A stretch of 64,000 nt of DNA from an uncultured Candidatus Saccharibacteria bacterium. Lineage in GTDB: Bacteria > Patescibacteriota > Minisyncoccia > 2-02-FULL-40-12 > GWA2-44-9. The stretch lies in the NCBI GenBank assembly GCA_964356795.1, contig CAYHIK010000001.1, positions 3,111 through 67,110 of the forward strand, in the 5' to 3' direction. The position numbers were made by a program, and so were the translations under genes. This document shows positions 2,914 through 33,111 of this stretch, piece after piece (position 1 is the first letter of the stretch; the number at the start of each line of letters is the position of its first letter). The notes below the pieces were generated by a model. It was not told where the DNA came from. It saw only the letters and a program-made list of their open reading frames with translations, and made no database searches.

Positions 2914-4119
2914 CTACCGATGCAATATATGTGGCATCCCCCAGCCCGTTGCAGAGTCATCACCTTTTAGGTTGATGTCGGCCGCCATTTCACGAAGCAA
3001 GAACCGCGTGGCCTCGGCGGAATTCTTTGCATCGCTCTGCCAGACAAGCGCAGCAAGACCCGCTACATGCGGGGCCGCCATCGATGAGCCAGACAAGATG
3101 GCGTAGCCACCGCCACGATATGTTGATTCAATATTGATGCCAGGCGCAGCAAACTCAACATCTCCTTCATTACGCTGATAGGCACGCGTTGAATCGTTTA
3201 ATCCGCGCGAAGAAAATTCGGCAGGGGCTTGCGCGTTATCAAGAGCACCGACCGACACGACACGCTCGCTTCGCGCAGGCCAATCCAAGCTGTCGTCATA
3301 TGGGCCGTCGTTTCCGGCGGCGGCGATGACGAGCACATCGTGCTCCATCGCGTACACCAACGCGTCATCAATGAACGAGCTCTCCGATTCACCACCAAAT
3401 CCGAGCACGATAATCTGTGCACCATCATCAACTGCGCGCATCATTGCGGCGCCGATGTCGTCGGAGTAGCAGAGGCCATCGCCGTCGCATACGCGATATG
3501 CGGAAATACTTGCCGATGGAGCAAATCCGTAAATACCTTCGCCAAACACTCCGCCGTCAGCTGCGATAATGCCTGCCATGTGCGTACCGTGACCATTTGC
3601 GTCATCGCAAGAATCTTCAACGATGGGCTTTGCACCGTCAGAGAATGAGACGCATCCTACGATTCGGCGGGCCAAGTCGGGATGCTCCCGATCAACGCCG
3701 GTATCCAGCACTGCAACCGTCACACCAGAGCCTCCCGCTGTTTCCTTTGCCTGCGGGTCGTCGAGCATCTCACGAATCCCCCATGACACGAGCTGTGAGG
3801 GTATTGCCTGGGGCGTTGGAGAACTTAATGCGATTGTCTCGGCTAGTATGTTGAACTTTTTCACAGGAATTGGTCGGAGCCCTGCAAGCCGAACAAGTTT
3901 GAGCTGTAAATCGCTCAGCGTTGCGGTAAATCCGTCCTCGAACACATGGCGAGCACCAATAGCGTTCTTCCAGAAAGAACGTGTTGTGGGTATGAAATAG
4001 CGACCGTCAGCATTGACGGAAGCAGCATGAGTCGATGGGGAGCTGGCTAAAACAAACGAAAAAACAAGGAAAATAGCCGCGAATATTGGTTTCATAATTG
4101 CATGGCAAGTATAGCACAT
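2914..4119 (-). CDS. secreted subtilisin-like serine peptidase (S8 family)
   Basis: N-terminal signal peptide. It carries the S8 catalytic triad motifs DTGVD, GHGTHMAGIIAA and GSSMAAPHVAG. Confidence 0.85.
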   Translation of the reverse strand: MCYTCHAIMKPIFAAIFLVFSFVLASSPSTHAASVNADGRYFIPTTRSFWKNAIGARHVFEDGFTATLSDLQLKLVRLAGLRPIPVKKFNILAETIALSSPTPQAIPSQLVSWGIREMLDDPQAKETAGGSGVTVAVLDTGVDREHPDLARRIVGCVSFSDGAKPIVEDSCDDANGHGTHMAGIIAADGGVFGEGIYGFAPSASISAYRVCDGDGLCYSDDIGAAMMRAVDDGAQIIVLGFGGESESSFIDDALVYAMEHDVLVIAAAGNDGPYDDSLDWPARSERVVSVGALDNAQAPAEFSSRGLNDSTRAYQRNEGDVEFAAPGINIESTYRGGGYAILSGSSMAAPHVAGLAALVWQSDAKNSAEATRFLLREMAADINLKGDDSATGWGMPHILHR

Positions 4120-6142: not shown

Positions 6143-7284
6143 CGCAACATGAGTTCGAACACAACCCCCGCAAGGAATATCAACGCGAGGCACCAGACGA
6201 GAAGTGACGGGATTGGAATATTAAACTCTGGTGTCCGCAAACGATTCTTGCGCGAGCGAACATACGCAATCAACACCAGCACCGACTGAAACCCGATAGC
6301 AACCGCGCCCACCAATCCAATGACATCGATAAAATTCCGAAGACCGCTCACGAACATGAGCAATGGCGGTACGAGGGTTAACATCCACGCGTGAATCGGT
6401 CGAATACGGTAATCGCGATGAAATGTTTCAAAGAGTGCAGTACCTAATAATATGTAGGACGTTGTCATGGTCAGCAGTCCAAGACATGAGCCGAGGATGA
6501 TAACCGGCATCCCAAATGTCCCAAAAAGTCCTGCGAATGATTCGGGCGATGTGATGTCGCCACTAATACCCACAATCGTAAATGCGAAGATAAGGTACAA
6601 CACTGCAACAATCGAAACTGCCGTGATAATCGCGGGTCGCATTAAACGCTCACGACCAGAAAGCAACTCGCGCTGCAATGGAATAGCCGACATGCCTGCA
6701 AATGCAAACAGGAGCACGCCATACGGAAGATGCCAATACTCTGGCGTCCACGCAGTGATGTGATCCCACTGGATATGCGGGAATCCAATCCCGGCAATCA
6801 CTGCAATGATAGACGCATACAGTCCAACCAGCACAATCTCAAACACCGCCATCGTGCGAAGGCGTATAAACCACATCAGCGACAACATGGATGCGAAGCC
6901 GATGCTGTACCACTGGGGATTAACTGCGAGAAACTGGGAAAGCACGTTGTGGAGAAATTCTCCTGAGACAATCATGTATGCGAGGAGCGCCCCGTACATA
7001 CTGATAAGAAGCGCGCACGTCATGAGCGCGCGGCCAAGAGGACCAAGCCAAATATTGATATATCCCACGACCTGATGGGTACCGGGCGATGATAGCACCA
7101 GCTCTGCAAACACAAGATCGAATAAAATCACGATAAGGGCCAATCCGACGAGCCAGGCGGTACCAACCCAAAAACCGGCCTTTGCAAATGCGAATGGAAT
7201 TCCAAAGATTCCAACGCCAACCATCGTGCCCACGAGCACGGCAGTCGCATACACAAACTTTCCATCACGTAGGATGCCTCGCAT
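6139..7284 (-). CDS. amino acid permease (Trp/Tyr/Ser-type HAAAP/AAT family)
   Basis: N-terminus MRGILRDGKFVYATAVLVGTMVGVGIFGIPFAFAKAGF, and about 11 TM segments. The track ORF begins at TTG 7314; an ATG at 7284 is preferred. Confidence 0.5.
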   Translation of the reverse strand: MRGILRDGKFVYATAVLVGTMVGVGIFGIPFAFAKAGFWVGTAWLVGLALIVILFDLVFAELVLSSPGTHQVVGYINIWLGPLGRALMTCALLISMYGALLAYMIVSGEFLHNVLSQFLAVNPQWYSIGFASMLSLMWFIRLRTMAVFEIVLVGLYASIIAVIAGIGFPHIQWDHITAWTPEYWHLPYGVLLFAFAGMSAIPLQRELLSGRERLMRPAIITAVSIVAVLYLIFAFTIVGISGDITSPESFAGLFGTFGMPVIILGSCLGLLTMTTSYILLGTALFETFHRDYRIRPIHAWMLTLVPPLLMFVSGLRNFIDVIGLVGAVAIGFQSVLVLIAYVRSRKNRLRTPEFNIPIPSLLVWCLALIFLAGVVFELMLR

Positions 7285-22841: not shown

Positions 22842-22914
22842 CCGCCCTTAGCTCAGTTGGTAGAGCTGCTCCCTTTTAAGGAGAAGGTCGCTGGTTCGAA
22901 TCCAGCAGGGCGGA
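22842..22914 (+). tRNA. tRNA-Lys (anticodon UUU)
   Basis: Cloverleaf worked out by hand. Acceptor CCGCCCT/AGGGCGG, D-arm GCTC-AGTTGGTA-GAGC, anticodon arm GCTCC-CTTTTAA-GGAGA with U33 and A37, T-arm GCTGG-TTCGAAT-CCAGC, discriminator A. No encoded CCA. Confidence 0.85.
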
Positions 22915-23092
22915 CTATGAATCAACGGCTAATGCCCCTGCGACATTAGCCGTTGATTTTATGATTCATCCTGCTGGATTCGAAGCCCGGAGCGATGTGG
23001 CCGCACCAGCGGACACCGTGAGGGCCGGAACCCGGAGGCATTGATTCGCGACGGCGAATCAATGACCGGAGGGTGAATCCAGCAGGGCGGAC
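22898..23092. repeat. triplicated tRNA 3'-end segment: direct copies 22898-22915 and 23075-23092 (gaatccagcagggcggac), inverted copy 22967-22985
   Basis: Exact 18-bp direct repeat of the tRNA T-arm/acceptor 3' sequence 177 bp downstream, plus a 14/19 inverted copy. This is an att-site-like architecture. Confidence 0.6.
22921..22961 (+). terminator. rho-independent terminator after tRNA-Lys
   Basis: 14-bp perfect stem atcaacggctaatg / cattagccgttgat with a 9-nt loop, followed by TTTT. Confidence 0.6.
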
Positions 23093-23381: not shown

Positions 23382-23523
23382 AATCCTAGCCGACCACATG
23401 GTCGGCCTTTCCTTTGCTCTCTTATACTCATGTCTTAATGACAAATTTCGGAAGCCCGAGCTCATTGACTTTATACAATTATTATGTTATACTTAATATA
23501 GACGTTTTTCAAAGGAGGATGCC

Positions 23524-23835
23524 GTGAATATCGCAGGTATCGACAAGGCGATCGTATTGGCCGCGTTGTACAATCGCGCCCGTACCATCGGACTGGCGGG
23601 CATGATGGACTTCGACCCCACCCCACTGGACGTGCTGGTGGCGAGGAAGATCATCAAGGAACGGCGCGGTGCCAACCCACTGTACTTCGACTACTTCCAG
23701 GGGCGTTGCATGAAGATCGATCTCTCGAGAGATGAGGTCGACACCACGCTCTTCGACAACGAGTATGGCCCGGGTGCCGCCCAGCGAGCCCTCGACGCGG
23801 CATCTGCTGTCGATGCGGACATGAAGAAGAAGTAG
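23524..23835 (+). CDS. small hypothetical protein (103 aa)
   Basis: GTG start with an AAAGGAGG SD 5 nt upstream. Terminator hairpin at 23847-23884. Confidence 0.45.
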   Translation: MNIAGIDKAIVLAALYNRARTIGLAGMMDFDPTPLDVLVARKIIKERRGANPLYFDYFQGRCMKIDLSRDEVDTTLFDNEYGPGAAQRALDAASAVDADMKKK

Positions 23836-23969
23836 AAACCCCAAACGAACCCCACGCCAAACGGTATGGGGTTCAATCTTTTTAATAAAACCTCCCGAAA
23901 CTTGATTATTATCAATAAATATTGTACAGTATTTATGTCGTTTCATAGCGCAGTTAGGAGCGAGTAATT

Positions 23970-24230
23970 ATGCGCATTGAGATTCATGACTATACGCACA
24001 TCTTCGATAGCTTAACACTCAGGCGTCCGCCGACACACACACCCCTACTTCACTCTTGGGGTGTGGACGACAGTGGATATCCACGCGTCGTTGATATCCC
24101 AGGAGCGGATGTACTCCGAATCGAACGGGCATTTGCAGAATTCAAATGGGCACAGGAACGACTTCGAGGACTCAATCGTGGCCCCGAGCCAAATTCCTGC
24201 CAATGCGGAAACTGCCCAGGGAGTAGCTAG
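23970..24230 (+). CDS. small hypothetical protein (86 aa) with C-terminal CQCGNCPG motif
   Basis: AGGAG SD upstream. Followed by the hairpin agtcgcatt-ccgt-aatgcgact and T5 at 24254-24280. Confidence 0.45.
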   Translation: MRIEIHDYTHIFDSLTLRRPPTHTPLLHSWGVDDSGYPRVVDIPGADVLRIERAFAEFKWAQERLRGLNRGPEPNSCQCGNCPGSS

Positions 24231-24286
24231 GTCGTGGTCATCAAAGTCGCATTCCGTAATGCGACTTTTTCTATCACAACAATCAC

Positions 24287-25936
24287 CTACGACTTCCCGA
24301 GCGCTTTTGCGATGAGCGCGCGAAGCTCTTCATCGCTGGTAGTGCGGAATGATGCGCCCGTTGCTGTGGGGCGACTTGGCTTCTGTTCAAACTCTTCAGC
24401 ATCTGGCTTGTGTTCTATTTTCCTCCCCTTAAAGTCGACTGCTCCTTGCAATAGATTTCCCAGCGAAGCGGGAGGGCGCACCTCGGAAGCTTGTTGTTGT
24501 GGGCGCGACTGTTGCGGACGAGGCTGCTGCGGACGCGCCACTGATTGCGATGGGAATTGACCACGAGCGGGGCGCGGTGATGCTGGCCCATCATCTCGGC
24601 GGGGCGGACGCTCGCGAGCATCATCGCGAGGCGCGTAGCCCGCAGGCACGATTGGTGCGCGCCATGCTGATATGGCAGCTTCGACTTCTGCGCGCGGATG
24701 CGCGTACATCGTGCGCGAGTATTCGATAACCTCATTGCGCGTGCTCTGCGCGAGCTTTGCGGGCGTATCCATGGTCATCGCTGAAAACGCATGACTCGTG
24801 ACACCATCAATCATCAGCTTCAGATAAATCTGACGGAACCCAAGGTTCACAATATCAGTCGCCATAAACTCTGGCGCAAACTCTTTTTCCAAAAATTCGG
24901 CGTCTTCAGCTCCAACACGGAATGAAATAATCGTGCCCACGTTTCCAAATGCCGCTTCGGCAACCTTTTCGTCTAACTGCTTGATATATTGATGCCCAAC
25001 GATAAGGGATAGGTTGAATTTACGCGCTTCGGAAAGAATATTCGCAAACGAAGCCGTCGCAAAGTTTTGGAACTCATCAACGATAAGACAGAAGTCTGCG
25101 CGCTCATGCTTGGGAATATCAACGCGACTCATTGCGGCAAGCTGAACCTTGGTGATAATCATGGCCCCCAGCAAGCGCGATGCGTCCTCCCCAATGCGGC
25201 CCTTGGAAATATCGACAAGAATAATCTTCCGCTGGTCCATCGCCTCTCGCATGTTGAACGTGGATTTCGACTGGCCTACCAGGTTACGAATCAACGAGTT
25301 TGAAACGAATTGTCCGACCTTGTTCTGAATTGCTGCCGTCGCTTCACTCGCGAACTTATCAGTGTACTTTGCAAACTCCTGCGTCCAGAATGCCTTCACC
25401 TCGCTATCGGTCACCTGGTCAACAACGGTCTTCCGGTAGTCCTTTTCTGCCAACATGCGGTTGATGCCGAGCAACGTTGAGCCAGGCGCCTCCAAGAGTG
25501 CGAGGATAGTGTTGTTGAGAATGTACTCCATACGTGCCGACCATGCGTCTTCCCAAATCTTCTTGAACACCGCCATCATACCGTCCGCCACGAGGTGACG
25601 CTGATCAAATCCGACCTGTTCCATCACATTGAACCCAACAGGAAACTGCATATCTGCTGGGTTGATGAAGATCACATCTTTGACGCGCTCGGGTGGGATA
25701 TAGTCGAGGAGATCGAACACCGCATCTCCGTGGGGGTCCATAAAGCAGAGTCCACGACCGTCCTGAATATCCTGAATCGCAAGCGTCTTGAGAAGTTCGG
25801 ACTTGCCCATGCCCGATTTGCCAACCACGTACATGTGGCGGCGACGGTCATCGAGCTTGATGCCGAAATGCGTAACAGAATTTCGAAACTCTGTGTTTCC
25901 AAACAGTACTACATCATTGTCAGAATTGGCGTTCAT
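24287..25936 (-). CDS. VirD4/TraD/TraG-like type IV secretion coupling-protein NTPase (T4SS-DNA_transf domain), no TM segments; P/R/Q-rich C-terminal tail
   Basis: Walker A GKSGMGKS and Walker B LIVDEFQNF in a TrwB/TraD-type ATPase core. The low-complexity tail is RPQQPRPQQSRPQQQ. Confidence 0.65.
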   Translation of the reverse strand: MNANSDNDVVLFGNTEFRNSVTHFGIKLDDRRRHMYVVGKSGMGKSELLKTLAIQDIQDGRGLCFMDPHGDAVFDLLDYIPPERVKDVIFINPADMQFPVGFNVMEQVGFDQRHLVADGMMAVFKKIWEDAWSARMEYILNNTILALLEAPGSTLLGINRMLAEKDYRKTVVDQVTDSEVKAFWTQEFAKYTDKFASEATAAIQNKVGQFVSNSLIRNLVGQSKSTFNMREAMDQRKIILVDISKGRIGEDASRLLGAMIITKVQLAAMSRVDIPKHERADFCLIVDEFQNFATASFANILSEARKFNLSLIVGHQYIKQLDEKVAEAAFGNVGTIISFRVGAEDAEFLEKEFAPEFMATDIVNLGFRQIYLKLMIDGVTSHAFSAMTMDTPAKLAQSTRNEVIEYSRTMYAHPRAEVEAAISAWRAPIVPAGYAPRDDARERPPRRDDGPASPRPARGQFPSQSVARPQQPRPQQSRPQQQASEVRPPASLGNLLQGAVDFKGRKIEHKPDAEEFEQKPSRPTATGASFRTTSDEELRALIAKALGKS

Positions 25937-25939
25937 AGA

Positions 25940-27268
25940 TTAGCGAGTAGGAAGCATCGTGGGTGGCTGACCCTTCTTCGACTGTACGCGTGGAAGAAGT
26001 GGAGCTTTTACATTAAGGCCTGGCATGTGCCACAACGTGGCGAGCTCTTCAACATTGAGGATGAGTGGGAAATCTTTCGGATTTTTTGACGGCTTGGCGA
26101 ACGCGCGCTTTCGATACGAGCCGTACATACCCTTCTTCTTTTTCAGCGTCCCCTCATCGGCACCAAATCCTTTGTCATTCGGGAAGAGCCAGGGGAATGT
26201 GCCCTTGTCCTTAGTGCCCGCTCCCGGCTTGAAGGTGTTCATGTTGTTGTAGAACAACTGCTTAAACATTGCGGTAATACTGGATGGACGCGCGCCATTG
26301 AATGCGTCTTTGCGAGCCACATACAGTACGCGAAGCGTTGTCTTGAATGCAACCAGCGAAAGCTTTCGCTGTATGCCTTCGAGCGCAAGCTTGTCTGCAG
26401 GCGTGAGATTCCCCATCGTGAATGGTTTCTCTTCTTTCTTTTTCTCCTCCGCAGGTGTAATCAAGCCGAACTCTGTGGCGAGAAACCCAAGAAGGGTGAA
26501 TGGAGCAAGCGCAATCGTCTGCACGAGCGGAGCTTCTGGCTTCTTGGGCTCCTTGCCAATCATCTTATCGACAACCGCTTGACCGTCTTTCACCCAATCG
26601 CCACCGGTGGGGCGGAAGATGTACTGCAACCACAAATACTCCCCAGGTCGAAGGGCGCTCATCATTTCAAGCAGTGGCGCGAGTGGATCAAGTCGAGCGT
26701 ACTCATCCTTACCTCCCGCGTCTTCAAATTCAGTCCAACTCCTGATGGGGTATGCGGGTGGCTGGGAGCCGACGAACTCGGTGCCCGACACATCGTATTG
26801 CGTTGAATCAAACTCATCGGGCAAAAGCGAGATGTAATCACCCGTCATCTTAATCTCGGCTTGCGGGTATTGCGCGAACAGAAGCGCCTCAACGGTATTC
26901 CGCTGACCCTCAGTGCATCGAATATAGAAATGAGTCTCTCCCCCATGCGAGACAATCTCGAGCGAGAACCAATCCGGGACTTTGCCCACAAAATATTGAT
27001 CCTTCCACTTAATACCTCCACCGTAGCTCGCATGAAGCCCGGCAAAAAAGTTTTGCGCTGCCATCGGACTGCTATAGAGAATCTCAGGCGGTGGAACAAT
27101 CTCGAGCACCACCCATTTCATACCAGCAAGATACGCGTCTTTGAGGTAATCAAGCCAGAGTGAACGAGCAACCGCTCCAAGAATCAGCGGGAACCACACC
27201 CACCAAAACTCAAACGCGAGCAAAAAGCCCTGTCGTAATACGCTGAGAATTGACGTCGCATCATACAT
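25940..27268 (-). CDS. membrane protein genetically coupled to the VirD4-like ATPase (possible split N-terminal membrane module of coupling protein)
   Basis: Two N-terminal TM helices, then a 400 aa soluble domain with a Lys-rich tail. Its stop lies 4 nt from the ATPase start, so the two are translationally coupled. Confidence 0.45.
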   Translation of the reverse strand: MYDATSILSVLRQGFLLAFEFWWVWFPLILGAVARSLWLDYLKDAYLAGMKWVVLEIVPPPEILYSSPMAAQNFFAGLHASYGGGIKWKDQYFVGKVPDWFSLEIVSHGGETHFYIRCTEGQRNTVEALLFAQYPQAEIKMTGDYISLLPDEFDSTQYDVSGTEFVGSQPPAYPIRSWTEFEDAGGKDEYARLDPLAPLLEMMSALRPGEYLWLQYIFRPTGGDWVKDGQAVVDKMIGKEPKKPEAPLVQTIALAPFTLLGFLATEFGLITPAEEKKKEEKPFTMGNLTPADKLALEGIQRKLSLVAFKTTLRVLYVARKDAFNGARPSSITAMFKQLFYNNMNTFKPGAGTKDKGTFPWLFPNDKGFGADEGTLKKKKGMYGSYRKRAFAKPSKNPKDFPLILNVEELATLWHMPGLNVKAPLLPRVQSKKGQPPTMLPTR

Positions 27269-29471: not shown

Positions 29472-30786
29472 ACACTCGCAAGAATGTACGCGTTACCACG
29501 ATAGAGGTAAACAAGCTTATAATAACGCCCGTCCCCAACGTGAGTGCAAACCCTCGAACAATCGACGCCGTGAATGCATACAGGACCAATGCGCTAATGA
29601 ATGCCGTCACGTGACTGTCGCGAATCGATGGCCACGACCGACGGAATCCCTCTGCCATCGCCGCACTGAGCGAGCGCCCTGCAGAAAGCTCCTCTTTCAT
29701 ACGAGCAAAAATAAGGACATTTGCATCAAGCGCCATGCCCAGCGAAAGAATGAATCCAGCTACACCCGCGAGCGTCAATGTGACGGGTAATGCCTTATAT
29801 ACAGAAAGCGTAATAAGAAGATAGACACCCAATGCAAGAAGCGACGTGACACCGGGAAGACGGTAAAAGGCAATCATGAAGAGGCCCACAAGAATGAGTC
29901 CCCATACTCCCGCATTCATACTATTCTGAAGCGATTCCTGACCCAGCGATGCTCCAATCGTCTGCTGTGAAATAAGCTTGATTGGCACGGGAAGCGCTCC
30001 GCTATTGAGGCGGGTTGCAAGCAACTTCGATTCTGGGGCTGTGAAGTTTCCGCTAATGACGGCGCTTCCATCCACAATCTCACTCTGAACAACAGGGATA
30101 CTAATAGGAACCCCGTCGAGGAAGATCGCGACCGGCTTCCCAAGATTGCGTCGCGTAATATCGGCAAATAACTTTGCGCCTTCATCGTTGAGCTCAAGAC
30201 TCACCTGGGGTCGTCCCGTCTGAGGGTCGAATGACACCAGCGCGCGTTTTAATTGTTTGCCAGAAAGGCCTGTTGAAATCCACGCATTTGGATCGGTAGC
30301 GCTCTGCTCTTTGAATTCCAAGAATGGCGTCTCCCCGATGAGCTTGATTGCCTCGTTCACATCCTTTACACCCGCAATCTCAACAATGAGTCTATCCGAG
30401 CCGCTGATTTGCACGACTGGCTCTGCAACACCAAAGAAGTTCACCCGACGCTCGACGACATCGCGAACACCCTGCATCGCAGAGGCGCGGTCAATATCGG
30501 CGGCAAGGCCTGAGAAGTCCGCCTGATACAGTAAGTGTGCACCTCCGAGTAAATCGAGCCCAAGGGTAAACGGTTGCGCGGGAACACTCGGAATCGGTCC
30601 GAGCCATGAAGGGAGATACTGATTCGTAAATCCAATACCGCGATTTACTGCACTCGGAGACACGTACACAAACAACGCCAACGATATGAGAATTATGCTT
30701 GAGAGAATTTTTGAGTTTCGCGTCATGCGTGGAACATCAATTACGGGCTTCATGATGACAATACTGACCGTTCTTGTCAAATCCAC
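29428..30786 (-). CDS. secD: protein translocase subunit SecD
   Basis: LGLDLLGGAHLLYQAD motif, a periplasmic domain and a C-terminal 6-TM bundle. Start ambiguous between GTG 30786, ATG 30753 and ATG 30726. Confidence 0.8.
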   Translation of the reverse strand: MDLTRTVSIVIMKPVIDVPRMTRNSKILSSIILISLALFVYVSPSAVNRGIGFTNQYLPSWLGPIPSVPAQPFTLGLDLLGGAHLLYQADFSGLAADIDRASAMQGVRDVVERRVNFFGVAEPVVQISGSDRLIVEIAGVKDVNEAIKLIGETPFLEFKEQSATDPNAWISTGLSGKQLKRALVSFDPQTGRPQVSLELNDEGAKLFADITRRNLGKPVAIFLDGVPISIPVVQSEIVDGSAVISGNFTAPESKLLATRLNSGALPVPIKLISQQTIGASLGQESLQNSMNAGVWGLILVGLFMIAFYRLPGVTSLLALGVYLLITLSVYKALPVTLTLAGVAGFILSLGMALDANVLIFARMKEELSAGRSLSAAMAEGFRRSWPSIRDSHVTAFISALVLYAFTASIVRGFALTLGTGVIISLFTSIVVTRTFLRVFASSRLGKYRALFS

Positions 30787-31002
30787 GGCTCTTCATGACG
30801 TCCTCCATATGGGTCCTTCGCCGATAGTCCCTGCTCGGAACTTGGTCACAAAGAACGCTCACCTCGCGAACCGTAGAACATGTTGCAATATTGGGGATGC
30901 AACATTCTGCGGCTCGCCATCAGCTCGCATCTATCATTTCTGCCAAGATTCCTAGGGCAGGGGCTACCGGCTACGGATCACTCGATATATGCTCTTACTA
31001 AT

Positions 31003-31030
31003 GAAAAGGCGGAGATGGTTAGTCTCCGCC
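31003..31030 (-). terminator. rho-independent terminator after small membrane protein gene
   Basis: ggcggaga/tctccgcc stem followed, on the minus strand, by TTTTCATT. Confidence 0.5.
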
Positions 31031-31055
31031 GAGGACGCACTACCGCCGACGCTTT

Positions 31056-31430
31056 CTACGAGATGCCGGCGTTATCTGGCTTCCGCCTGGTGAAGAACCC
31101 GCGGAGATAGTAGTAAGCCACCCCCTGCAAGGAGCCGATGATCATGAAGATCCCCGGGGAAAGGACGTAGAACAAGCGGATGTGCCACTCAAGTCCGCCC
31201 GTCGTGATCGTCCACATGGGAATGCCGCCGATTACGAGACCCAGCGGACCCCATACCAACACCTCCCGAGTGGACAGGTAACCCGAACCACCCGCTCTCT
31301 TCATGTGAATCTTCGCCAGTGTGAACCCGAGGAGCACTGCGCATGGCCACTCAGCCAGCCACACCAGACTACCCACAAACCCGAGCGCCACGAACACTAC
31401 GAGCAACGTAAATTCCATGCAAACCTCCAC
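31056..31430 (-). CDS. small 4-TM membrane protein (hypothetical)
   Basis: 124-codon ORF, four hydrophobic segments; no CrcB or SMR signature. Confidence 0.4.
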   Translation of the reverse strand: MEVCMEFTLLVVFVALGFVGSLVWLAEWPCAVLLGFTLAKIHMKRAGGSGYLSTREVLVWGPLGLVIGGIPMWTITTGGLEWHIRLFYVLSPGIFMIIGSLQGVAYYYLRGFFTRRKPDNAGIS

Positions 31431-31466
31431 TGCACATGATACGCCATAATTTGTATCATGTCAAGT

Positions 31467-31629
31467 TTCCCGCTAACCCATTCCAGCGCAGGGGTCTTGG
31501 CGGAAATAATAGTTGCGAGGCGAAATCAACCGCAGTAGTGTTGCATCTTCAAAACTGCAACATCTACTACGGTCGATAAGCCGAGAACTCCTTACGACCA
31601 AGCCCCGAGCAGGGATGGGTTAGCGGGGA
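31467..31629 (-). other. ~160-nt nested inverted-repeat / structured element in the intergenic region between the nuclease gene and the small membrane protein gene
   Basis: Outer 15-bp inverted repeat ttcccgctaacccat / atgggttagcgggga, and a second tier ggggtcttgg / ccaagcccc. The inner hairpin is ccgcagtag-tgttgca...tgcaaca-tctactacgg. Confidence 0.5.
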
Positions 31630-31635
31630 AGTTGA

Positions 31636-33111
31636 CTACTCTGCCTCATCGAGCTTTTCACGAGACTTGCGGGGCTTCTGGGAGGCGAGCCAATCGCGGA
31701 GGAGCATCGTGGCGCGTACATCGTCTTCGTTGTAGCGAATGATTCTATCAAGCGATGCGCGATCCCCCGTGCGAAGCCACGTGTCGTACCATACGACAGA
31801 CTCCGCTCCGCCCGCCTCCGAATCTGCCCATGCATACCCAAGATACTTTGCCACATCTTTCAATGTATAGAAGTAGAGCGGAAGCACTACGGAATCAATC
31901 GTCTTCTGGTGGAGATCAACCGAGTGTTCGTGGAATTTCTGCACGAGATGCGATGGCGCACCGTGGCGCTGTGCGAGACGGTCAAACACCATCTTTTCAT
32001 AAAACGCATAGTGATAAATCGCAAAATTCTCCCACCCTGCGAGCAGGTCGAGGAATTTGCCCCACATCACGGCTTCATCTTCGGGCTTTTCTGCAATCAG
32101 CGTAGAGTAGGTCACGGCACCAGACGCAGTATCGCGAATCAAAAGCCCAAGCAAATAATCGACGTCGCGCGTCGGATCAGATTCAATATCGAAGAAAATT
32201 TCAGTGGCAACCTCGGGAAATGCCCCCTTTCGGATAATCTTTGGCTCTCCGCTCATGAGGACGCGCGCCTGATTCTGGAAACGGACAATCTTATCGTACG
32301 GCCAATCTTCAAATTTACCACGGAGATCGTCGGCATCGGCTTGTGCAAGGTCGGCAACCGTATGAATCCCAACGCTATACAAACGACGCTGATCGGCCTG
32401 CGAGAGGCGATAGATAAGCGAGACGTCATTGCATCCTTCGGCACCCTCAAGGCAAAGCGAGTACCACGGAGTACGCTTACAGCTCGATTTCAAGAACGGC
32501 GCGGGCTTATCCCCCGATAAGATGCGCTCGATGTCTTCGCGCGTTGTGTGAAATTGCGAAATAAAATCCCCTACCAAAAACGAACGCTCATGGCCCTGTG
32601 GATCAATCACGTATGCCTCGGTCGGCCGCACACCCTGAATCTTCTCTAAAATCAAAGAATAGAACACGAGCGGAAACTTATGCTCATCTTTAAGCTCAAG
32701 ATTTCGCTGTACATCGTACGTGACATATTGAAAGTCCCCCAGCGTACTCTTCCCGGGTCGAGCTTCGAGTAAATCGGGCATCCCCACCCAATCTTCCGTC
32801 ATGAGCACACCGTGGTAAATGTTTTTCCCCTGCTTCATCAGCTCGAGCGTTGCCAAGTAGGCCTCTTCCAAGTCGCGATACTGCTCGGGCTTGAGTTCCT
32901 CGAACTTCTTATGCGCTCCAAGTGAGCCGACGGCATCCTGCATCTTACCTTTGTAGATAATATCCAGGAGTGGGGATGGCTCTTTCTTATGCGCGCTATC
33001 GGCGTAAATGTCGTACCAAATCCAATGCGGGCACTGAAAGAATTTATAGAAGTGCTGAGCGGTTAGTTTCTGTGTTGGTTCCATGGGGGCATTGTACCGT
33101 GCGCGCAGCAA
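31636..33111 (-). CDS. TM0106-family RecB-like nuclease (RNase H-like/YprB-type domain)
   Basis: 491 aa. The C-terminal region EIFFDIESDP...YHYAFYEKMVFDRL...YNEDDVRAT resembles the TM0106 putative RecB-family nuclease. Confidence 0.45.
   Translation of the reverse strand: MLRARYNAPMEPTQKLTAQHFYKFFQCPHWIWYDIYADSAHKKEPSPLLDIIYKGKMQDAVGSLGAHKKFEELKPEQYRDLEEAYLATLELMKQGKNIYHGVLMTEDWVGMPDLLEARPGKSTLGDFQYVTYDVQRNLELKDEHKFPLVFYSLILEKIQGVRPTEAYVIDPQGHERSFLVGDFISQFHTTREDIERILSGDKPAPFLKSSCKRTPWYSLCLEGAEGCNDVSLIYRLSQADQRRLYSVGIHTVADLAQADADDLRGKFEDWPYDKIVRFQNQARVLMSGEPKIIRKGAFPEVATEIFFDIESDPTRDVDYLLGLLIRDTASGAVTYSTLIAEKPEDEAVMWGKFLDLLAGWENFAIYHYAFYEKMVFDRLAQRHGAPSHLVQKFHEHSVDLHQKTIDSVVLPLYFYTLKDVAKYLGYAWADSEAGGAESVVWYDTWLRTGDRASLDRIIRYNEDDVRATMLLRDWLASQKPRKSREKLDEAE

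Follow-up and report, generated by a model that had tools for sequence, protein, structure and literature searches.

The 64,000-nt stretch analysed here (the window; positions 3,111 to 67,110 of contig CAYHIK010000001.1, assembly GCA_964356795.1) derives from a member of the Patescibacteria (Paceibacteria/Yanofskybacteria-like) of Hainich groundwater well H41. It carries a long palindromic non-coding rod, here called A, directly behind a gene for a RecB-like nuclease. On the minus strand, the order of features is the RecB-like stop codon (31638-31636), A, a predicted promoter, the motif GGAGG, a short open reading frame (ORF), a terminator, a second rod (B), a 35-nt spacer and the secD promoter (Table 1). 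A first-pass annotation had correctly placed A between the RecB-like stop codon and a small hydrophobic membrane ORF, and had proposed that A is a 5' leader or riboswitch, a terminator or attenuator, or an insert resembling a MITE (miniature inverted-repeat transposable element).

Table 1. Features of the RecB-like/secD junction, in positions of the window.
Feature	Position	Strand	Remarks
TM0106-family RecB-like nuclease gene	31636..33111	-	stop codon abuts A
Copy A	31460..31636	+	palindromic rod; plus strand homologous to minus strand of B
ORF promoter (predicted)	31436..31464	-	TTGACA-17 nt-TATCAT; 11/12 sigma-70 positions, near-consensus
Weaker promoter-like site	31431..31459	+	TGCACA-17 nt-TATCAT; 9/12 positions
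120-aa hydrophobic ORF	31056..31418	-	3-4 predicted membrane helices
Intrinsic terminator of the ORF	31008..31030	-	8-bp GC-rich stem, then TTTT
Copy B	30820..30971	-	inverted relative to A; between ORF terminator and SecD promoter
SecD promoter	30752..30780	-	TTGACA-17-CATCAT, upstream TG
Lineage-specific inserted block	30798..31635	.	A, promoter, ORF, terminator and B; ~840 nt; missing in L003-L008 and L071

Copy A is 177 nt long, with a core palindrome at 31466-31630, and its nested tiers are those described earlier. The outer inverted repeat of 15 nt pairs TTCCCGCTAACCCAT (31467-31481) with ATGGGTTAGCGGGGA (31615-31629), including one T-G pair; the second tier pairs GGGG-T-CTTGG with CCAAG-CCCC (CCAAGCCCC) and holds a 1-nt bulge; and the inner hairpin, CCGCAGTAG-TGTTGCA / TGCAACA-T-CTACTACGG, closes on a 10-nt loop. 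A repeat search extended the outer arms to 34 nt with 82% complementarity (31460-31493 / 31603-31636), whose five outermost base pairs (GTCAA/TTGAC) adjoin the stop codon of the RecB-like gene at one end and the -35 element of the ORF promoter at the other. Folding of 186 nt as RNA gave -92.8 kcal/mol for the minus strand (z -9.8) and -96.4 kcal/mol for the plus strand (z -10.7), with a single rod on either strand and an energy that was matched by 0 of 200 shuffles. As single-stranded DNA, A folds to -49.6 kcal/mol (z -8.2). Neither A nor B contains an ORF of at least 50 aa, and both elements (152-177 nt) are free of a transposase gene. Searches of Rfam with the whole window at the gathering threshold, and with 401 nt around A at E up to 10, matched A to no family and returned only a tRNA elsewhere in the window and two chance matches.

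A blastn search of the element against its own contig, followed by a repeat search, detected a second copy, B, which had escaped the first-pass annotation. B measures 152 nt (30820-30971) and lies one gene further on, in the intergenic region that separates the small ORF from secD. A covariance model (R1) was built from the plus strand of A (A+) and the minus strand of B (B-); its match to B spans 30809-30985 with 143 bits and E 8e-33, compared with 68 bits for the reverse strand of A, and it scores nothing else in the window. A+ aligns with B- through the apical loop (UCUUCAAAAC vs UCCCCAAUAU) and the asymmetric internal loops, and no alignment was obtained between A+ and B+. Because the loop and bulge sequences align in this one combination only, the relative orientation of the two copies is settled as inverted.

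In a structure-guided alignment, A and B are 69% identical over 150 aligned positions, and their base pairs can be compared at 53 places. Thirty-one pairs are identical in both copies, 11 are changed on both sides with pairing retained, 5 are kept through a one-sided change to a wobble pair, and 6 form in only one copy; counted over the pairs changed on both sides, 11 of 13 still pair. A gapless, model-fitted alignment, which puts one helix off by a base, gave 9 two-sided changes as against 0-3 with slid partners, and 9 was reached by 2 of 500 shuffles. B folds to -75.3 kcal/mol on the minus strand and -65.7 kcal/mol on the plus strand, an advantage of 9.6 for B-, and has a z of -4.9 as single-stranded DNA. 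On the A+ and B- strands, there are 7 G-U pairs vs 2 A-C oppositions, the latter being G-U pairs on the other strand. This asymmetry, together with the greater stability of B-, indicates that the folding strand is set by the element (A+, B-), and relative to the genes that strand runs antisense at A and in the sense direction at B. The best-conserved parts lie in the interior, namely TCTTGGCRGAAATRATAG, the TGTTGCA/TGCAACA stem and GACCAAGNNCCGAGCAGGGA. A and B are thus homologous and inverted, and their rod fold has been retained through many two-sided substitutions.

The junction was compared with 80 loci that encode RecB-like relatives in GTDB species representatives (535 kb). Among the relatives that have kept both genes, the seven closest (L003-L008 and L071; protein identity 76-88%) have secD 38-117 nt behind the RecB-like gene; in this genome the distance is ~910 nt. 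DNA homology with the relatives ends at the RecB-like stop codon and resumes at ~30797-30785, just upstream of the secD promoter. The short gap in the closest relatives identifies the block from A through the ORF to B as a lineage-specific insertion, and all three assemblies of this population carry it in the same orientation. The comparison of orthologous intergenic regions that had been suggested as a check for A yielded no counterpart, A being absent from all 80 loci by blastn and by R1. At the same junction, ~20 of the 80 related genomes have unrelated insertions of 0.5-2.2 kb with unrelated ORFs, several of which contain long hairpins of their own. In Paceibacteria and Yanofskybacteria, the RecB-like/secD junction is a hotspot whose content varies from genome to genome.

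The cargo of the block is self-contained. Its ORF starts at the ATG at 31418 (120 aa), rather than at 31430, with a GGAGG ribosome-binding site at 31424-31428, 5 nt ahead of the ATG, and its GC content is 58% vs 52% in the whole window. The predicted near-consensus promoter sits between A and the ORF and leaves a leader of ~10 nt, which carries the GGAGG; A would therefore not lie in the leader of the ORF. On the opposite strand, the weaker promoter-like site would start transcription at ~31466, the base of A on its plus strand. A palindrome at 31429-31466, with 14-nt arms ACTGCACATGATAC / GTATCATGTCAAGT, spans the ORF promoter and gives rise to a promoter-like site on each strand, one the mirror image of the other; it could serve as operator or as bidirectional promoter. 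A scan for intrinsic terminators listed only the one behind the ORF (31030-31008), and there is no T-run within 2 nt of the A stem on either strand. With no U-tract after its stem, A is not an intrinsic terminator, which leaves the terminator or attenuator proposal weak, and B likewise has no U-tract after it on either strand. The secD promoter beyond B is conserved in L002, L003, L008 and L117. A Pfam search with the ORF returned nothing and a word-index protein search returned only the protein itself; a full HMMER search of 1.8 billion representative proteins found just two remote homologues (P0122 and P0123; 35% and 29% identity). Both have gene neighbourhoods unlike that of the ORF, where the intergenic regions measure 74-95 nt and hold no long hairpin. 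These two relatives indicate that the ORF is a real but rare gene and that the rods are not its regular companions.

Hairpins in the related loci were located by a seed-based hairpin search. The closest relative (L002; 89% identity of the RecB-like protein), from the same aquifer, has a different insertion at the junction and a 165-nt rod at 6156-6320, between the -10 element and the ATG of secD, that is, inside the secD 5' untranslated region (UTR). Another genome, L117, is 97.7% identical to L002 over 7.3 kb and is without the rod, having CGGA at the site (7146-7149). The empty site reads GTCGTTA-CGGA-ACTGCGCATG and the filled site GTCGTTA-[165 nt]-ACTTCGCATG, with no target duplication. The filled and empty states show that rods of this size and shape are gained or lost as discrete units and are mobile in this clade. 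The same family, which we call family 2, recurs at L037 3624-3787, in the secD 5' UTR of a genome distant from L002 and in the opposite orientation, and at L043 977-1166, in an unrelated intergenic region. Its core is ~85% identical among copies and its outer stem covaries strongly. In all three copies the family-defined strand folds better regardless of the direction of the host gene, as in L037 (-86.9 vs -62.0 kcal/mol). Family 2 resembles A and B in its length of ~165 nt, its full-length rod, its covariation and its better-folding element-defined strand, as well as in its position a few to 40 nt from sigma-70-type promoters, at the RecB-SecD hotspot and in either orientation. It differs in being placed inside the SecD 5' UTR, B standing instead ahead of the SecD promoter, and it is for family 2 only that mobility is seen. 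Further unrelated rods stand directly 3' of the RecB-like stop in L009, L019, L042 and L072, and Rfam recognised nothing in nine related loci with rods; family 2 likewise matches none of its families.

Taken together, these data suggest, with a probability of roughly 0.5, that A and B are old, diverged copies of a palindromic non-coding insertion element of ~155-175 nt, of the REPIN/ERIC/MITE type. The two copies would flank a recently acquired, self-contained cassette (promoter, 120-aa membrane ORF and terminator) at the variable RecB-like/secD junction. Such an element may spread, or may once have spread, through a single-stranded hairpin intermediate on the element-defined strand (A+, B-), and its mobilising enzyme would be supplied in trans, much as RAYT is believed to serve REPINs and TnpA serves IS200/IS605 elements. 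Effects on the host would then be side effects. The RecB-like mRNA, transcribed from the minus strand, would carry a hairpin of ~-90 kcal/mol right after its stop codon, which could shield its 3' end from exonucleases. A may also act as a partial transcription barrier that hampers read-through into the cassette, and B, between the cassette terminator and the secD promoter, might be a further insulator, so that the rods would jointly insulate the cassette. The outermost stem of A overlaps the -35 element of the ORF promoter, and its extrusion or pairing could influence that promoter. The direct biological consequence is probably modest, consisting of a stable hairpin that ends the RecB-like mRNA and of insulation for an orphan membrane-protein gene.

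Several classes of small palindromic element offer a comparison. REPINs are REP doublets, thought to be mobilised by RAYT transposases, and have been described as forming hairpins in single-stranded DNA or mRNA, with common compensatory changes, excision events and a transposase acting in trans (PMC3116915). Like A and B, they are non-coding, extragenic imperfect palindromes that fold as single-stranded DNA or RNA, have no internal transposase, commonly show compensatory changes across the hairpin and occur with excision or absence alleles (PMC3116915). The hairpin-forming palindrome with compensatory changes in its arms is found in A and B as well (11/53 pairs), and the lack of a target duplication is what an IS200-type mechanism would lead one to expect. 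REPINs are, however, shorter (~80-110 nt), are present in tens to hundreds of copies beside a RAYT gene, as against two copies and no RAYT seen in the 20 scanned window proteins, and have been reported in Proteobacteria and Cyanobacteria but not in Patescibacteria. ERIC, YPAL (RU-2) and Correia elements are also intergenic imperfect palindromes, of 104-168 bp and in either orientation; they are co-transcribed with their neighbours as long RNA hairpins, vary in presence or absence between strains, and occupy genome-plasticity regions close to promoters (PMC3184786). They differ in having conserved terminal inverted repeats, a TA or other target duplication and many copies, features not shown for A and B, and none of the collections searched contains a sequence similar to A or B. 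MITE-bounded composite units, such as integron mobilisation units, likewise consist of an inverted palindromic pair flanking a cargo gene that is missing in close relatives (PMC3184786). Their copies are near-identical with a flanking target duplication, whereas A and B are ~70% identical with none seen, and the unit of A, ORF and B was seen at no second site.

MITEs are defined as small elements without a transposase, with terminal inverted repeats, a target-site duplication and multiple copies, mobilised by a transposase in trans (PMC3184786). A and B are under ~400 bp and without a transposase gene, and each has complementary ends, yet these ends are the part that has diverged most between the copies. 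The earlier suggestion of a MITE-like insert therefore stands in part: the second copy with its compensatory changes, the inserted nature of the block and the polymorphism of an analogous rod speak for it, while the conserved termini, the target-site duplication and the many dispersed copies of a strict MITE were not found in the ~72 kb of this genome covered. Given the variable termini, the missing target duplication, the two copies and the lack of a transposase among the 20 window proteins scanned, we assign A and B to neither the MITEs nor the REPINs.

A number of observations weigh against the interpretation of A and B as insertion elements. The copy number is two, both adjacent, in ~72 kb of this genome. 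Further copies of the terminal repeat, a check proposed at the outset, did not turn up: at up to 3 mismatches, TTCCCGCTAACCCAT matches only the two arms of A in the window. R1 found no matches in the rest of the window or in the 80 orthologous loci, none in the four flanking contigs (~8 kb beyond the window ends), and none in eight metagenome loci or twenty viral loci. The conserved 18-base block GACCAAGNNCCGAGCAGGGA gave 8 chance matches in JGI metagenomes, none fitting R1 (the match in L094 is coding sequence), and 0 matches in IMG/VR, where TCTTGGCNGAAATNATAG gave 20 chance matches and the apical-stem pattern 0. A blastn search of the 851-bp block against phage and plasmid collections found no match, and none of the 20 window proteins scanned was recognised as a transposase or recombinase. 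Convincing signs of a target-site duplication are lacking; AACTT (5 nt) lies on both sides of A as a direct repeat yet also belongs to the palindrome GTCAA(C/G)TTGAC, and B and the empty site of family 2 are likewise without one. The termini are the least conserved part (an outer stem of 16 bp in A and 8 bp in B, with 3 two-sided changes), whereas in REPINs the terminal REP 16-mers are highly conserved and the spacer poorly; the conserved interior of A and B is the opposite of what a transposase-bound MITE or REPIN shows. Finally, family 2 has no detectable sequence or covariance-model similarity to A and B (R1 misses family 2 and R2 misses A and B), and it is likened to them by size, shape and location, without sequence homology.

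Among the other explanations, the strongest is that A, the ORF and B form one composite mobile cassette that arrived as a single, non-autonomous piece, with the rods as long terminal inverted repeats and the membrane-protein gene as cargo. We consider this doubtful, although the only copies found sit exactly at both ends of the ~840-bp block missing in close relatives, in the arrangement of terminal inverted repeats; the cargo comes with a promoter, a ribosome-binding site and a terminator of its own and has a GC of 58% vs 52%; and MITE pairs flanking genes are known (PMC3184786). The arms are only ~70% identical, which is unusual for ends that one enzyme has to recognise, the unit is not flanked by a target-site duplication, the two remote homologues of the ORF live in other contexts without hairpins, and family 2 moves as a single rod, not as a pair. 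It is unlikely that the rods are structured small RNA genes, that is, two paralogues resembling 6S RNA or an RNase III-substrate rod, with the weak promoter at 31431-31459 driving A on the plus strand, antisense to its neighbour genes, and B transcribed from the minus strand. Covariation does support a conserved fold, and the G-U asymmetry favours one strand; the single-stranded segments GAAAUAAUAG and CCGAGCAGGGA are conserved between A and B while the stems vary; the promoter-like site ends 7 nt ahead of the base of A on the correct strand; and the size and rod shape are reminiscent of 6S RNA. However, B- has no recognisable promoter, no terminator follows A or B, Rfam gave no match even at E up to 10, and the element is absent from every related locus searched and lies inside an insertion. 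Moreover, the plus-strand promoter only mirrors the strong promoter of the ORF inside a palindrome, and the family-2 rods are also without a consistent promoter in their own orientation. 6S RNA itself (RF00013 and relatives) was rejected on the absence of a match at E up to 10 in the 401 nt and on the position of the element in an insertion absent from relatives.

Still less likely is a local accident, in which a palindromic, terminator-like sequence was duplicated in inverted form when the ORF was inserted, with no mobility and a function limited to blocking read-through. Just two adjacent copies are known, each at a gene boundary, and long palindromes might stay complementary through hairpin-templated repair, without selection. 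Against this, the ~30% divergence and the 11 two-sided compensations point to a long independent history under pairing constraint, no U-tract follows the stem and the ORF has its own, normal terminator of the intrinsic type, and similar rods were gained or lost in the sister species. We give very little weight to the notion of an invertible segment in which A and B would serve as recombination sites for flipping the promoter-ORF cassette. Inverted repeats do flank a promoter-containing segment, but they are 150 nt long, ~70% identical and each self-complementary, where the sites known for invertases are short and almost identical; the neighbourhood holds no recombinase gene, and 3/3 assemblies of the population show the same orientation. 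The least probable reading is a 5' leader, riboswitch or attenuator of the small membrane protein, as first proposed from the highly structured sequence upstream of the ORF on its coding strand. The 11/12 predicted promoter downstream of A leaves a ~10-nt leader, A is absent from the 80 loci and matches no Rfam family, the upstream regions of the ORF homologues are just 80-95 nt without a hairpin, and the second copy lies downstream of the ORF and inverted. Integron attC sites were also considered and rejected. These carry R''/R' boxes (RYYYAAC / GTTRRRY) at their ends and keep the same orientation in arrays, with an integrase or an array nearby; in A, GCTAAC/GTTAGC lies inside the stem with 8-13 more paired bases outside, B has GGTAGC/ACTATC instead, the copies are inverted, and no integrase gene is nearby.

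Genomes of the candidate phyla radiation (CPR) are tiny and are thought to be poor in mobile DNA. Read as insertion elements, A and B belong to a known kind, one with essentially no described examples in this phylum, and we found nothing specific in the literature on palindromic mobile elements in CPR bacteria. The locus presents a hotspot with lineage-specific cargo, rods gained or lost between near-identical strains, and a fold maintained by compensation. It also calls for caution in annotation: significant RNA-like hairpins with covariation beside genes in these genomes need not be riboswitches or small RNAs. A bolder proposal, which we hold only as a speculation with the odds well against it, though not as far as for the small RNA genes, is that ~165-nt rod-shaped mobile palindromes form a previously undescribed class in Paceibacteria (CPR), with several sequence-unrelated families. 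They would insert without target duplication, a few tens of bases or less from promoters or in 5' UTRs, and keep their fold by compensation on an element-defined strand irrespective of the direction in which the host transcribes; in pairs they would frame, and might help to capture, orphan gene cassettes at hotspots, the RecB-SecD junction being one. If true, these reduced genomes would have a mechanism that is guided by hairpins and works on single strands of DNA or RNA, with an enzyme yet to be identified.

Other palindromic structures were observed in the related loci. Hairpins of 110-120 nt at L019 4449-4559, L030 1062-1173 and L021 2820-2936 have in common the inner motif GGCAUAAAUUYCU...GAAAUUUUGCC, and their outer stems of at least 20 bp are perfectly paired and wholly different in sequence; they may represent a third family, with a conserved core and a free outer stem. 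A GC-rich structure of ~220 nt at L002 4947-5166 (also in L117), with 25-nt arms that are 92% complementary and a fold of -123 kcal/mol on the minus strand, lies within the sister species' own insertion, between two orphan ORFs. At L053 943-1288, the halves of a ~120-nt hairpin recur as direct copies, perfect or nearly so, a short way downstream at 1060-1114, 1215-1249 and 1250-1288, which suggests a local array of palindromic units.

Elsewhere in the window, the last 18 nt of a tRNA gene (22842-22914), GAATCCAGCAGGGCGGAC at 22898-22915, recur as a perfect direct repeat at 23075-23092, and an inverted copy, CCTGCTGGATTCGAA, is found at 22970-22984. Two long nested hairpins follow from these repeats and span 22895-22984 and 22970-23086 (-57 and -70 kcal/mol). 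The region 22842-23092 resembles what remains of an att-site duplication (~160-177 nt), or else a miniature insertion at the 3' end of the tRNA. Downstream of a sigma-factor gene, positions 23509-27268 hold a DUF8128 protein (ENA gene call, L001/L082), a TrwB/TraG-like coupling ATPase and small orphan ORFs adjoining the tRNA with duplicated 3' ends, and this segment may be part of an integrated or conjugation-related element.

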